Part shown: positions 113-63,757 of the stretch, piece after piece
Layout: each line of letters starts with the position of its first letter
Position numbering within the stretch: position 1 is the first letter of the stretch
Source of the DNA: Eledone cirrhosa
Taxonomy: Eukaryota
NCBI GenBank assembly: GCA_964016885.1
Contig: OZ024761.1
Location: forward strand, 28,520,001 to 28,584,000
Direction: 5' to 3'
Length of the DNA stretch: 64,000 nt
Notes under the pieces: model-generated
Told to the model about the DNA's origin: nothing
What the model saw: the letters and a program-made list of their open reading frames with translations, nothing else
Databases searched by the model: none
Position numbers and translations under genes: made by a program

Positions 113-250
113 TAGTAGAACACTGGAGGGTTATATCCATAGTAGTAGAGCACTCAGTCCATGGGACGAGTTTGGTTAGCTGAAGATCCGCATATGGTGA
201 AACATTTGTTCTCGGTATGGTGAACTAACTGTTGTGGAACTACTTTTATA
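113..250. mobile_element. PLE pLTR-like fragment: inverted 3' terminus (113-170) joined to a sense fragment that starts just before an HHR
   Basis: 113-170 is the reverse complement of 18233-18287 (ctcgtcccatggactgagtgctctac...ccagtgttctac). 209-235 matches 18187-18213 (ttctYggtatggtgaactaactgttgtg). Flanked by (TA)n. Confidence 0.65.
178..213 (+). ncRNA. Minimal type I hammerhead ribozyme
   Basis: ag-CTGAAGA-tcc gcatat ggt-GAAA-catttg-TT-ct. Intact core, weak stem II, near-palindromic stem III, 2-bp stem I. Confidence 0.55.
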
Positions 251-278
251 TATATATATGTGTGTGTATGCATATATA

Positions 279-619
279 TCATCATCATCATCATTTCATT
301 TTACGTCCGCTTTTCCCCTGCTTGCAAGGGTGGGACGGGAACTGATGCTGGCTTGATTTCTACAGCTGGATGCCCTTTCTAACACCAACCTCATTTACAG
401 TGAGTGCTGGGTGCTTTTTTTGCCGTGGCACCTCCACGACCTCTTTGGAGTGGAATGATAGGGACCCCAGTCCCTATCATCTCATTTCTACAGCTGAGTA
501 AACTGGAGCAATGTGAAATAAAGTGTCTTGCTCAAGGAAACAACACATCACCTGGTCTAAGAATTGAACTCACAACCTTTCGATTGAAAGGCCAATGCTC
601 TAACCACTAAACATGTGCC
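279..619 (-). mobile_element. tRNA-derived SINE, family A, full length, (ATG)n tail
   Basis: Minus strand has an A-box-like ...ttagtgg, B-box gagttcaattc, core ccttgagcaagacactt, aRgggcatccagctgtagaaa, tail cggacgtaaaatga(tga)n. At least 7 copies in the window. Confidence 0.9.
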
Positions 620-829
620 TCATCTGTTGTATTTTTATACTTTACACACACACATATATATATGTGTGTGTGTAAAGTATATATATGTATATATATATAT
701 ATATGTATATGTATATATATATATATATATATATATATATATATATATATATACACACACACACAAATACACACATACATATATATATGTGTGTGTGTGT
801 AAAGTATAAAAATACAACAGATGATGAGG
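618..829. repeat. Inverted repeat with microsatellite centre
   Basis: tcatctgttgtatttttatactttacacacac (620-651) mirrors gtgtgtgtaaagtataaaaatacaacagatga (793-824). Confidence 0.8.
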
Positions 830-1117
830 TTCGATGAAGATATATATTAGTTTCACACTTAATATAATAGGAGTAGTCTTATATATATAGTTTAGGTGAT
901 TCAGTAAATTACTGGTGGTGGTATCGATAGACTTTGACAAGCTGATATATAAAACAGTTGATGCAGGATATTGGGAGTTGAATTGTCTGAAAATATACAT
1001 CGGATTAGCGGTTGTTTTAGGTGTGCTCATTTACAAATTAACAAAACACGTTTCAGTTACATAATAAATTCGATTGAGAAATTGGTGTAGTCATGTCATT
1101 TATTAATTTATATATAT

Positions 1118-1450
1118 GATGGCTGCAGACTCTGTTAAGAGTATTGTAATCGCTTGTCAGATTACAGAAAATGGTGTACTTTTAGGCTACGGTCAACCAC
1201 ATGAACTTGTAACAGATCCTGACCAGGCAATGCCTGTGCTTTGAAGGGTTTTTTTTAAGTGAGGAAAGGCCTTGCACTCGACCAATCCAACTCTCTGAGC
1301 ATCGAAAACATTACCCAAAAAGGAGAGCTGGTCAACATCATTGAAGGCTTCGGAAGCCGCAGGTTTTTTTTTCTTTTCATAGTTTCCCTCTCTTAGAAAG
1401 GTGTTGTGAAAACAACTGGGGGCCTTTCACTTCCAGGCAAAAAAAAAAAA
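1118..1450. repeat. Dispersed repeat, homologous to 6942-7290; possibly derived from an RTE 5' UTR
   Basis: Shared blocks in the same order: tgatggct, atcgctt, atgcctgtgctt, ttttaagtgRggaaaggc, ccaatcc, ctctctgaRcatc, ttacccaaa, acatcatt. Confidence 0.65.
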
Positions 1451-1709
1451 AGTACTATTTGGATAGCTGTTGACTACATATATATAAATATATAGATATA
1501 ATTGAATGGTTAGTACACTTTCCATCCATAGTTAATATGTTCATCACACTGGTGGTTTTAACTCCCTCATGATTGAACACATATGTACTCTCTATATGCT
1601 GATTTATAAAAAGCCTGGAATCTGTTCCTTGAGCTCATTGAATTATAGGGGATGATGTGAGCCTTTAACTCTACTAATTATTTTGATATATATATATATA
1701 TATATATAT

Positions 1710-1856
1710 AGGGTGGGTAAAATTCCCAAGATCCATGGACGAGTTCTCTCCAGCGGTCTCTGTCCTTCATCATCACTGCTACGTTCTGTGTCTCCAGGAG
1801 ACCAGTGTCTGTCTTTAGGGCATCAACATATGTCAACCTCGGTCTCGCTCATCTAG
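1710..1856 (-). mobile_element. RTE-clade LINE, 3' end of ORF (cut by the gap)
   Basis: Minus-strand translation ARPRLTYVDALKTDTGLLETQNVAVMMKDRDRWRELV matches the RTE C-terminal pattern RP..TY.D.L..DTG...M.DR..W. Confidence 0.75.
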
Positions 1857-2056
1857 NNNNNNNNNNNNNNNNNNNNNNNNNNNNNNNNNNNNNNNNNNNN
1901 NNNNNNNNNNNNNNNNNNNNNNNNNNNNNNNNNNNNNNNNNNNNNNNNNNNNNNNNNNNNNNNNNNNNNNNNNNNNNNNNNNNNNNNNNNNNNNNNNNNN
2001 NNNNNNNNNNNNNNNNNNNNNNNNNNNNNNNNNNNNNNNNNNNNNNNNNNNNNNNN
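1857..2056. other. Assembly gap (200 N)
   Basis: Run of N. Confidence 1.
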
Positions 2057-60914: not shown

Positions 60915-61790
60915 ACACATTAACACAGCCACAGACACACACAGATACACACACATACACACGCTCACATTCACACACACACACACACTCACACGTACAC
61001 ATTAACACAGCCCCAGGCACACACAGACAGACAGAGCCATACACACACACGCTCACATTTACACATATACACACACACACGCTCACATTTACACATATAC
61101 ACACTCACACGTACACATTAACACAGCCACAGGCACACACAGACAGATAGAGCCATACACACACACACACACACACGCTCACATTTACACACACACACAC
61201 GCACACTCACACGTATACATTAACACAGCCACAGGAACACACAGATAGACAGAGCCATACACACACACACACACACACGCTCACATTTACACACACACAC
61301 GCACACTCACACGTACACATTAACACAACCACAGGTACACACACACAGACAGAGCCATACACACACACACACACACACACACTCACTCACACTCACACGT
61401 ACACATTAACACAGCCACACACACACAGACAGAGCCACACACACACACACACTCACACGTACACATTAACACAGCCACAGGTACACACACACAGACAGAG
61501 CCATACACACACACACACACGCACACTCACACGTACACATTAACACAGCCACAGGTACACACACAGAGACAGAGCCATACACACACACACACTCACACGT
61601 ACACATTAACACAGCCACAAGTACACACACAGAGACAGAGCCATACACACACACACACACACGTACACATTAACACAGCCACAGGTACACACACACAGAC
61701 AGAGCCACACACACACGCACACGCACACTCACAGGTACACATTAACACAGCCACAGGTACACAAACAGAGACAGAGCCACACACAGACAC
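60915..61790. repeat. ~60-bp CA-rich minisatellite
   Basis: Repeated cactcacacgtacacattaacacagccacagg...acagagcca. Confidence 0.9.
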
Positions 61791-62184
61791 CTGATATAGC
61801 GATAGTGTGATTGTGTGCACCTGGATGAGTAGAGAGAAGAAAGTATTGAACACTGATAATTGTATTGAAGAAATGTAATGATCTCAGAATTAATAATGAT
61901 TTCTTACAGAGATATTGATATTGGTCCATTGATTAGGAGATAGGCTGACTGTACTGGGACTACATTTACTGATGCTAGGAGGACAAATGGTGACCTCAGC
62001 AATATTATATATATATATATATACACACACATGTATATAGAGCCATACACACACACACACACGCTCACATTTACACACACACACACTCACATATATACAC
62101 ACACATGTATATATATATATATGACAAAGTAAAACCTACTACAGTCAGTAGGCATCTCTAACAAAATACACCCCCGTCCCACCA

Positions 62185-62732
62185 CCCCCAGCCCATCCAC
62201 ACCGCCCCTTTCAATGTAAAGTTAGGTTGGTGCCACAAAATCCAGGCCGAAACAAATGAGATCGTGTAGGTGTCACGACAAAAAAACACACAGTCCATGC
62301 TGTAATGTGACCGTGTAGGCAACACGGTAAAAACCTCCCAGCCCCACACTGTAAATGTGGTTGGTGTTAGGAAGGGCATCCAGCTGTAGAAAACCCGCCA
62401 GACAGTCCACGCTGTAATGTGGCCGTGTAGGCAACACGGTAAAAACCTCCCAGCCCCACACTGTAAATGGGGTTGGTGTTAGGAAGGGCATCCAGCTGTA
62501 GAAAACCCGCCAGACAGTCCACGCTGTAATGTGGCCGTGTAGGCAACACGGTAAAAACCTCCCAGCCCCACACTGTAAATGTGGTTGGTGTTAGGAAGGG
62601 CATCCAACTGTAGAAAACTCGCCAGACAGTCCTATGCGAGCAAGACAACCACTCTTGCCTCAAGTGGGAAAACTCCCGTCCAAACCTATGCAAGCGTGGA
62701 ACATGGACGTTAAACGATGATGATGATGATGA
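62185..62732 (+). mobile_element. SINE A-related 3' half with an internal ~117-bp unit in three tandem copies
   Basis: gtgtaggcaacacggtaaaaacctcccagccccacactgtaaatg..ttaggaagggcatcca x3; (gat)n tail. Confidence 0.85.
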
Positions 62733-62737
62733 TATAT

Positions 62738-62943
62738 AACGAAGGAAATGTGGTAAGGAACCAGATGGACCATAACGCACCAAAGTACTCAATACTTAGG
62801 GTAGTAGAGTGGGAAATAGGAACAAGTAGGACCCCGACAGCTGAGCTCAAGCCGTTTCGACGGCTAATTCTGGACTTCATTTAGTCCAGAATTAGCTGTC
62901 GAAACGGCTTGAGCTCAGCCGTCGGGGTCCTACTTGTTCCTAT
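62738..62943 (-). mobile_element. Family E fold-back element
   Basis: ~125-bp hairpin ataggaacaagtaggacccc...ggggtcctacttgttcctat. Confidence 0.82.
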
Positions 62944-63021
62944 ATATATATATATATATATATATATATATATATATATATAAATATATATATAAATATA
63001 TATATAGAGAGATAGAGAGAG

Positions 63022-63300
63022 AGATAAATCTACCACTCAATGGTAGGGTCTAAACCGTATAAAGAACTCAATGTAATCCATATGTAGATGTCGTGAAACA
63101 AAGTTTAAAATACAAAAACTTTATCAACGATATAATTCAATTGGATACAGAGTCAAAATAGAAATATTAAAACAATGAAATTAAACACAAAACTGTTAAT
63201 TCATAGTAAAACTCATTATTTTACGATCGTTTCTGGGGTGTAGTTCCCTGTATGTTCATTCAATTATTGATCTATGTAAAACATATTACAAAATATCATA
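63022..63300 (-). mobile_element. Inverted pLTR with the 3' half of an HHR (GAAA-cgatcg-TA)
   Basis: Homologous to 10792-11160; abuts the GIY-YIG remnant. Confidence 0.7.
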
Positions 63301-63304
63301 GTAA

Positions 63305-63757
63305 GAAAAAGATACCCTATATGCAAACGGTTGTAATTGTAGAATAGAAGATAATTGTCCCTTAAATGGAAATTGCTTAATTAATAATATAGTATATAAA
63401 TGTGTAATCACCACTAAAGACTCTAATCAATCCTATATAGGATCCACTTCTAATCCATTTAAATCGATATTGTATGCACACACCCACAGTTTCCGAAACA
63501 CAAAATTAGCAAATACCACTTCTTTAGCAGAAGCAGTTAATAATTGTAAAAAGAAGAATATTAAATATAACCTAATTTGGAAGATTCTTAAGGGAGCTAT
63601 TTCTTATCAGGGCAATAGAAGGGAGTGTGGACTGTGTTCCCAAGAAATTTTTGAAATTACTAAATCGAAGGACACTCTATTAAATAAAAGATAAGAATTA
63701 ATTTTAGTATGTAACCATAACATTAGAAAGACATTCAAATATTATAAATACAACTAA
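63305..63757 (+). pseudogene. Penelope-like (Nematis-like) GIY-YIG endonuclease remnant
   Basis: In frame upstream of the listed ORF: GCNCRIEDNCPLNGNCLINNIVYKC..SYIGSTSNPFK; then ECGLCSQE..LLNKR*, with a frameshifted LVCNH. Confidence 0.88.

Follow-up and report, generated by a model that had tools for sequence, protein, structure and literature searches.

Inner ends of inverted Penelope-like element insertions in the Eledone cirrhosa genome pile up at a base that is likely the 5' end of the RNA template

A 64,000-nucleotide (nt) stretch of the Eledone cirrhosa genome, here called the window (contig OZ024761.1, forward-strand positions 28,520,001 to 28,584,000, of the 3.0-Gb assembly GCA_964016885.1), is very rich in simple repeats and carries eight insertions of endonuclease-bearing (EN+) Penelope-like elements (PLEs). 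In all eight, an inverted PLE 3' module lies beside a TA tract and is joined to a part in sense orientation. What decides the base at which the two parts meet? The original prediction, made from the window sequence, was that cleavage or structure of the hammerhead ribozyme in these elements sets the point of template switching. Copies from the rest of the genome give a different answer. Inner arm ends pile up at one base per family, which is likely the 5' end of a capped RNA, and ribozyme cleavage does not set the junction. The element type and its overall layout are already known, as are the inverted arms, the one-sided tails and the preference for (TA)n.

The window insertions represent seven families, A to G, and the eighth (H, at 63022) is a D-related copy (Table 1). 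Their junctions were placed by alignment to natural genomic copies. Exact 3'-module motifs have 4427 matches genome-wide for family D, 3340 for A, 514 for C, 4689 for B and 233 for F, and the family E motif has 2866 with one mismatch allowed. The first 90 D loci, 30 each of A, C, B and F, and 20 of E were retrieved, along with 14 G loci obtained by DNA search. The D (by tail motif), A, B and E samples were chosen independently of the junction. The motifs that selected C and F overlap the predicted cut site, so these two samples are unusable for the cut-site test. Queries spanning a junction are biased to similar junctions and were excluded from rates. Arm ends were also listed genome-wide for D, A, F, B and G. 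Positions are numbered from the first C of the hammerhead core (C = 0), with negative values upstream. Each family has two fixed outer ends, one short (S, or short-primed) and one bearing a tail (T, or tail-primed), and arms are named after them.

Among family D T arms in the 90 retrieved copies, 11 of the 51 still at risk end at position -7 (21.6%). The end rate is 2.2% per base at -5 to 0 and falls to 0.16%, 0.13%, 0.30% and 0.09% per base in four other zones. Another 28 arms read through, and six interrupted by a short interspersed element (SINE) were censored. Genome-wide, the template base continues past this hot base in 7164 matches and does not in 2671. When 100 of the latter were judged by hand, about 80 proved to be true ends, with 9 unrelated sequences, 8 mutated read-through copies and 3 SINE insertions making up the remainder.

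Other families have hot bases of their own. Among the first 100 matches listed for each, 12 family A arms end at -8 (about 15 of 88 over the next 17 nt; Fisher p 1.5e-8), 17 family F arms end at -6 (7 of about 80 over the next 17 nt; p 1e-15) and 6 family B arms end near -88 (2/94 over the next 17 nt; p 9e-7), in tests that treat positions as independent. The pattern used for the B listing drops some perfect palindromes through its last letter. In family G, which has no ribozyme core, 19 of the first 100 matches listed end within a 7-nt zone and none of 81 within the next 11 nt. Every hot base in the five peaked families (D, A, F, B and G) is an A directly after YC. We take this context to be initiator-like. 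Several D subfamilies also carry, about 75 nt upstream of the hot base, a CCAAT box.

Arms that end at these bases often gain a nucleotide. In families A and F combined, the first base that neither the template nor the partner arm explains is C in 13 of 19 cases (A in 4, T in 2), although C makes up 16% of the loci (binomial p 2e-6 against an expectation of 0.18). Two junctions (L132 and L250) have an extra base on both arms, C on one and G on the other. At full-length L1 5' junctions, an extra G reflects the RNA cap (PMC11702581). The promoter of Penelope has been located in its pseudo-long terminal repeat (pLTR; PMC2377424), and an initiator (Inr)-like motif has been described in a pLTR (PMC3846280).

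Several observations weigh against a capped transcription start at the hot base. Family C lacks a sharp peak (its 13 ends range from -125 to +30, with three at -24 to -27), family E has none in 20 loci, and family A has a second cluster of ends near -21. The untemplated C is weaker in D, found at 17 of about 80 listed ends and, in retrieved copies, at 5/11 ends versus 4/25 at control positions, probably owing to the AAT/ATT overlap through which many D ends are joined. In B and G, bases of the partner arm make it ambiguous. A reverse transcriptase (RT) may, moreover, add an extra C at any template end, capped or not. The rows in the genome-wide listings come from the first chromosomes, were counted by hand, and were sorted into end classes defined after the data were seen. 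Finally, an abundant SINE sits exactly at the D hot base in 5 of the 90 copies (L043, L044, L047, L083 and L113), so this base attracts insertions at the level of DNA as well. The family C arm in the window is interrupted by a similar SINE. No RNA data set was among the sequencing runs listed, and three contig sets from one sample, a type of data that does not reveal RNA ends, gave no joints when aligned to L243:150-830.

The SINE insertions, together with a reported preference of one PLE endonuclease for ATT (PMC11167929), would fit a hot base that is a DNA nicking hot spot, at which later insertions or breaks in existing copies create the junctions. This explanation is highly improbable. Past the partner arm there is no trace of the upstream part that an old copy would have left, 32 of 32 D short ends running into TA, and in B, F and G the hot base is not an ATT.

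If the hot base is a true RNA 5' end, it might still be produced by endonucleolytic processing rather than by the start of transcription, either through 3'-end cleavage of a tandem read-through transcript or by the PLE protein. An AATAAA lies 9 nt upstream of the D hot base, every hot base is in a CA step, and neither run-off nor an untemplated C strictly requires a cap. The AATAAA is not seen at that place in A, F or G. Cleavage of 3' ends after CA would also remove the A of the step, which instead stays in the arm (19 ends at -7 versus 5 at -6). Processing is therefore an unlikely source of the hot base.

The ribozyme has location in its favour. In A, D and F, only 6-8 nt separate the hot base from the core, which places it in or next to the 5' strand of stem I, and the hammerhead motifs of D and A have predicted folds in which stem I is closed. 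A few D junctions (L017 and L029) overlap through stem I complementarity. However, none of 100 listed D matches and only 1 of 86 independent A copies listed ends at the predicted cut site, and 2 of 102 retrieved D arms end within 1 nt of it. The A count is 1/86 because 15 cut-site rows sit in a single tandem array. In neither D nor A does the hot base mark where stem I (9 bp and 5 bp, respectively) ends; it is about 88 nt away from the core in B and exists in G, where there is no core. The distribution of junctions relative to cores in sampled copies is indeed non-random, as had been expected, but distance from the core is not what unites the families. We consider it very unlikely that the ribozyme fixes the switch point. 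Its proximity is instead a by-product of the likely RNA start, which the hammerhead adjoins because it would be the first thing transcribed. As a separate matter, the tandem array (L248, C1:17.84-17.88 Mb) consists of an amplified short family A piece whose end is at the predicted cut site.

The window itself gives a mixed picture of this proximity. The junction lies within 25 nt of the core in four of the eight insertions (A, C, D and F). In the others it is farther away (B and E), inside stem II (H) or in an element that has no CUGANGA core (G). The predicted junction at 10977, on the first C of the core, is accurate to the base or nearly so, being 0-1 nt before that C. The one placed near 171 in the interval 113-250, 9 nt upstream of the core, is actually 2 nt upstream. 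The insertion given as 7493-7877 is present, but it starts near 7409 and includes a tail.

The outer ends reveal how the arms are combined. In 34 of 35 D head-to-head pairs, a T arm is joined to an S arm. The T arm is the longer one in 15 pairs, the shorter in 10 and equal in 10. This arrangement bears on a mechanism considered for related elements, in which one strand folds back and self-primes on an antisense template to yield head-to-head palindromes (PMC3846280). Many junctions are short perfect palindromes with overlaps of 2-7 nt, and a single template could account for the same subfamily variants being on both arms. Yet fold-back does not account for outer ends that differ, for a longer arm that can be either one, or for fillers and extra C or G bases on either or both arms. 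Arms that reach the hot base also join TA directly or an open reading frame (ORF) fragment of another family (L040, L063 and L131), and fold-back itself does not predict that arms stop at an initiator-like base and carry an additional C. Self-priming is decidedly unlikely. Two trivial sources of inversion are ruled out. A fixed non-autonomous master with a built-in inversion is incompatible with junctions that vary base by base in 30 look-alike loci, and an assembly fold-back artefact is incompatible with arms that differ by outer end, substitutions and fillers.

The idea that these PLEs target (TA)n is borne out. Over seven families, 230 of 246 termini touch (TA)n, directly or via another short repeat, a count that omits ends continuing into tail or ORF and leaves the F short ends unscored. 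As background, 13.4% of positions flanking the loci and 19.1% of those across the window are adjacent to TA. Where the template beyond an outer end is visible (the D T end in L243 and the S ends of B, E and G), TA-like bases follow, and these bases past the start sites could pair with the target. In a Hydra-clade survey, nearly all families insert into (TA)n (PMC8557442).

The insertions had also been suggested to feed the microsatellite load, and this suggestion is partly upheld for CT/AC tracts. Tracts of CT or AC were counted just outside 29 termini and those of GA or GT outside none, on a symmetric background. At loci with such a tract and both ends seen, the opposite end is plain TA in 7/7. 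This bias suggests that the tracts are new repeats made by slippage at priming, which fits better than the splitting of compound targets. The window has a second family A arm (18185-18287); past its tail end come first a long (CT)n and next a (TA)n, an arrangement resembling the strand-biased tracts.

One model can bring together the fixed outer ends (each insertion having one S and one T), the sharp inner ends specific to each family and the variable joins. Transcription would start inside the upstream pLTR at the initiator-like YCA. In family D (L243), the S and T start sites of such an RNA would lie about 190 and 320 nt downstream of its 5' end. The endonuclease-bearing PLE inserts into (TA)n, with an arm that begins at an S or T site on each target end. 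Priming at the upstream sites would yield short complementary DNAs (cDNAs) that run off the capped, uncleaved sense RNA, often gaining a C opposite the cap. Priming at the downstream copy of these sites would yield long arms that read into the 3' untranslated region and ORF. The cDNAs would then be joined head to head through an overlap of a few bases, trimming or filler, and slippage at priming likely creates new CT or AC repeats where the element meets the TA tract. We judge this model as a whole to be probable.

A more ambitious version could equally well hold or fail. In it, a dimeric RT-endonuclease would prime both ends of cut TA at two fixed RNA sites, copy capped, ribozyme-uncleaved sense RNA up to the cap, join the cDNAs head to head, and stutter in a telomerase-like manner that seeds AG/AC microsatellites; junctions would map PLE promoters in any genome, and arms of different families would be joined in one event.

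Two kinds of unusual junction were encountered in the sampled loci. At L048, a 13-nt unit spanning the D hot base occurs three times, as if the end of a cDNA had been re-primed on RNA in a telomerase-like way. At L040, L251, L160 and L032, two PLE families meet: an arm from one is fused directly to a module or ORF fragment from the other, with Hydra-type joined to Neptune-type and vice versa. Such cross-family joins could come from two different ribonucleoprotein particles acting at the two target ends, or from a nested insertion followed by a deletion.

The assignment of these elements to EN+ PLEs rests on motifs, because a Pfam search matched no families for four of four proteins and homologues had no useful names (118 hits without informative names, one bearing an unrelated source name). 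Tandem D units are 6.6 and 7.0 kb long (L242 and L243). The L243 unit spans 7035 nt between cores and has a single ORF of 813 amino acids from the first Met, with an RT and an endonuclease-like C-terminal part. Motifs recognized in it by eye include those of RT, DKT, RWR (RWK-like), a CxCX5C linker, and CxxC plus CxH near the C-terminus, with no CCHH. By these motifs, family D probably belongs to the Hydra clade, and related Hydra-type ORF pieces occur in loci of families A, B, C and F. Families E and G, with Neptune-type ORF fragments in which a CX4CxxC-type linker precedes a GIY-YIG-type domain (window ORF 28317-29195 and the L272 ORF), are provisionally placed in the Neptune clade. The E and G ORFs, which are fragments, contain the CX2-5CxxC linker and endonuclease CCHH typical of that clade.

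The noncoding part of these elements has the organization expected of pLTRs: tandem units, an inverted 5'-truncated copy and a tail at one end. Core, GAAA and stems of a candidate type I hammerhead can be discerned by eye in A, B, C and D. Stem I of family F does not abut the predicted cut site, the E core is degenerate, and G lacks a CUGANGA core. An Rfam scan of the window returned no hammerhead among the matches listed (150 of 438), which are microsatellite-driven noise from microRNA families. A retrozyme, a non-autonomous element for which a ribozyme-cleaved monomer is the template, was rejected on the cut-site counts given above and because copies read through into ORFs. The leader of family D is of separate interest. 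About 495 nt (L243:321-815) separate the likely start site from the first Met of the ORF and hold the ribozyme and both RT start sites, such that ribozyme cleavage there would strip the cap from the coding RNA.

The arms of all eight window insertions are collected in Table 1. The description of each as an inverted 3' end plus a sense fragment in (TA)n is correct for the inverted module, but the sense part of E, like that of H, consists of an ORF fragment and has no pLTR.

Table 1. Arms of the eight PLE insertions in the window (T, tail-primed; S, short-primed; positions count from the first letter of the window).
Family	Feature	Position	Strand	Remarks
A	T inverted arm	115..176	-	
A	S sense arm	178..245	+	hammerhead core at 180, 2 nt downstream of arm start
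B	T inverted arm	7409..7685	-	core at 7596; inner end is family hot base ~88 nt upstream of core; junction 7685/6
B	S sense arm	7686..7873	+	mutated core near 7774
C	T long inverted arm	~8121-9670	-	core at 8338; SINE inside at ~9052-9240
C	S sense arm	9669..9782	+	variant core near 9692, 20-25 nt past arm start
D (Hydra-type)	T inverted arm	10790..10975	-	ends 11 nt downstream of cut site; junction 10975/6, 6-7 nt short of family hot base
D (Hydra-type)	S sense arm	10976..11162	+	core at 10977, long stem II
E (Neptune-type)	S inverted arm	27836..28317	-	degenerate hammerhead-like motif near 27945-27985; (GA)n separates arm from TA tract; junction at 28317, ~330 nt from motif
E (Neptune-type)	ORF fragment	28317..29264	+	C-terminal part of RT, Cys linker and beginning of GIY-YIG; lacks pLTR
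F (older subfamily)	inverted arm	37684..37826	-	mutated core; junction ~37823-37829, 3-7 nt upstream of core
F (older subfamily)	short sense arm	37830..37845	+	
G (Neptune-type ORF in 2 loci; no CUGANGA core)	S inverted arm	39343..39530	-	ends at family hot spot
G	sense arm	39531..39555	+	shortened by SINE
H (D-related)	T inverted arm	63022..63315	-	ends inside stem II; junction near 63310, ~28 nt inside stem II
H	sense part, C-terminal fragment of Hydra-type ORF (GIY-YIG region)	63305..63748	+	no pLTR

Other parts of the window contain further features. Positions 14004-14696 form a 694-bp palindrome with 95% identity, each arm of which has an inward-pointing (tail to tail) hammerhead-like core; it has no TA flanks. 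A short element with a terminal hairpin of 110-130 bp is repeated beside TA tracts at 17413-17538, 56405-56512 and 62816-62943 and is common in the sampled loci. More hammerhead-core fragments of other or older PLE families lie on the reverse strand at 7890-7950, 16030-16090 and 43460-43520.

How inverted pLTRs form, which strand serves as the template and whether hammerhead-cleaved RNA is used in vivo are stated to be open questions in PMC3846280, PMC8557442 and PMC11167929. The literature covered, mostly the main texts of openly accessible papers, showed no study that places the inversion junctions of PLEs at a start site or a cap. A retrozyme preprint from 2026 (10.64898/2026.07.22.740005) is concerned, in its accessible part, with origin and not with junctions. 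The thousands of copies in this genome permit exact, testable predictions: a defined start base in each of five families, a template that stays uncleaved, a single S and a single T priming at every insertion, and new CT or AC repeats at primed ends. If the model is true, PLE activity would be linked to the heavy microsatellite load of this genome.

Family D resembles the Hydra-clade EN+ PLEs (Craig et al. 2021, PMC8557442) in its ORF motifs, putative pLTR hammerhead, (TA)n targets, inverted 5'-truncated copy and one-sided tail. The inverted pLTR at the truncated 5' end, which the original prediction took as established for PLEs, is in keeping with published descriptions of an inverted copy and a one-sided tail (PMC8557442; PMC3846280). 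Unlike the published Hydra-clade elements, which are under 3 kb, the D unit is about 7 kb, with a tail of about 130 nt, a stem II of about 100 nt and thousands of copies. The accessible text of the Hydra-clade survey contains no description of a junction hot spot like that of the PLEs in this genome. Families E and G resemble Neptune PLEs in their linker and GIY-YIG-type domain, TA targets, and S and T ends. They differ from them in the hammerhead, which is degenerate in E and without a CUGANGA core in G.

The closest biochemical parallel is PAc, a Poseidon element from Anolis (Frangieh et al. 2024, PMC11167929). In vitro, its protein cuts both strands and extends them, the tail is defined by a pair of internal RT start sites, and ribozyme cleavage is not needed. 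The PAc start sites have no homology to the cut DNA, whereas TA-like bases mark the D tail end and the B, E and G short ends. The inner junction is not treated in the accessible part of that study; here, the inner ends are mapped.

Twin priming by L1 (PMC11702581) is similar in that the second target end primes reverse transcription, the inversion is joined by microhomology, and an extra G marks the cap. In an L1 insertion, the inverted part derives from a region farther upstream and has no overlap with the 3' part. In the present PLEs, instead, both arms start at fixed sites of the 3' module and would copy the same stretch to the RNA start. Penelope elements of Adineta vaga (Arkhipova et al. 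2013, PMC3846280) share head-to-head pLTRs, junction palindromes, a tail on one arm and an Inr-like motif. Antisense self-priming was proposed for them and a sense template was left open; the data presented here favour two primings on sense RNA.

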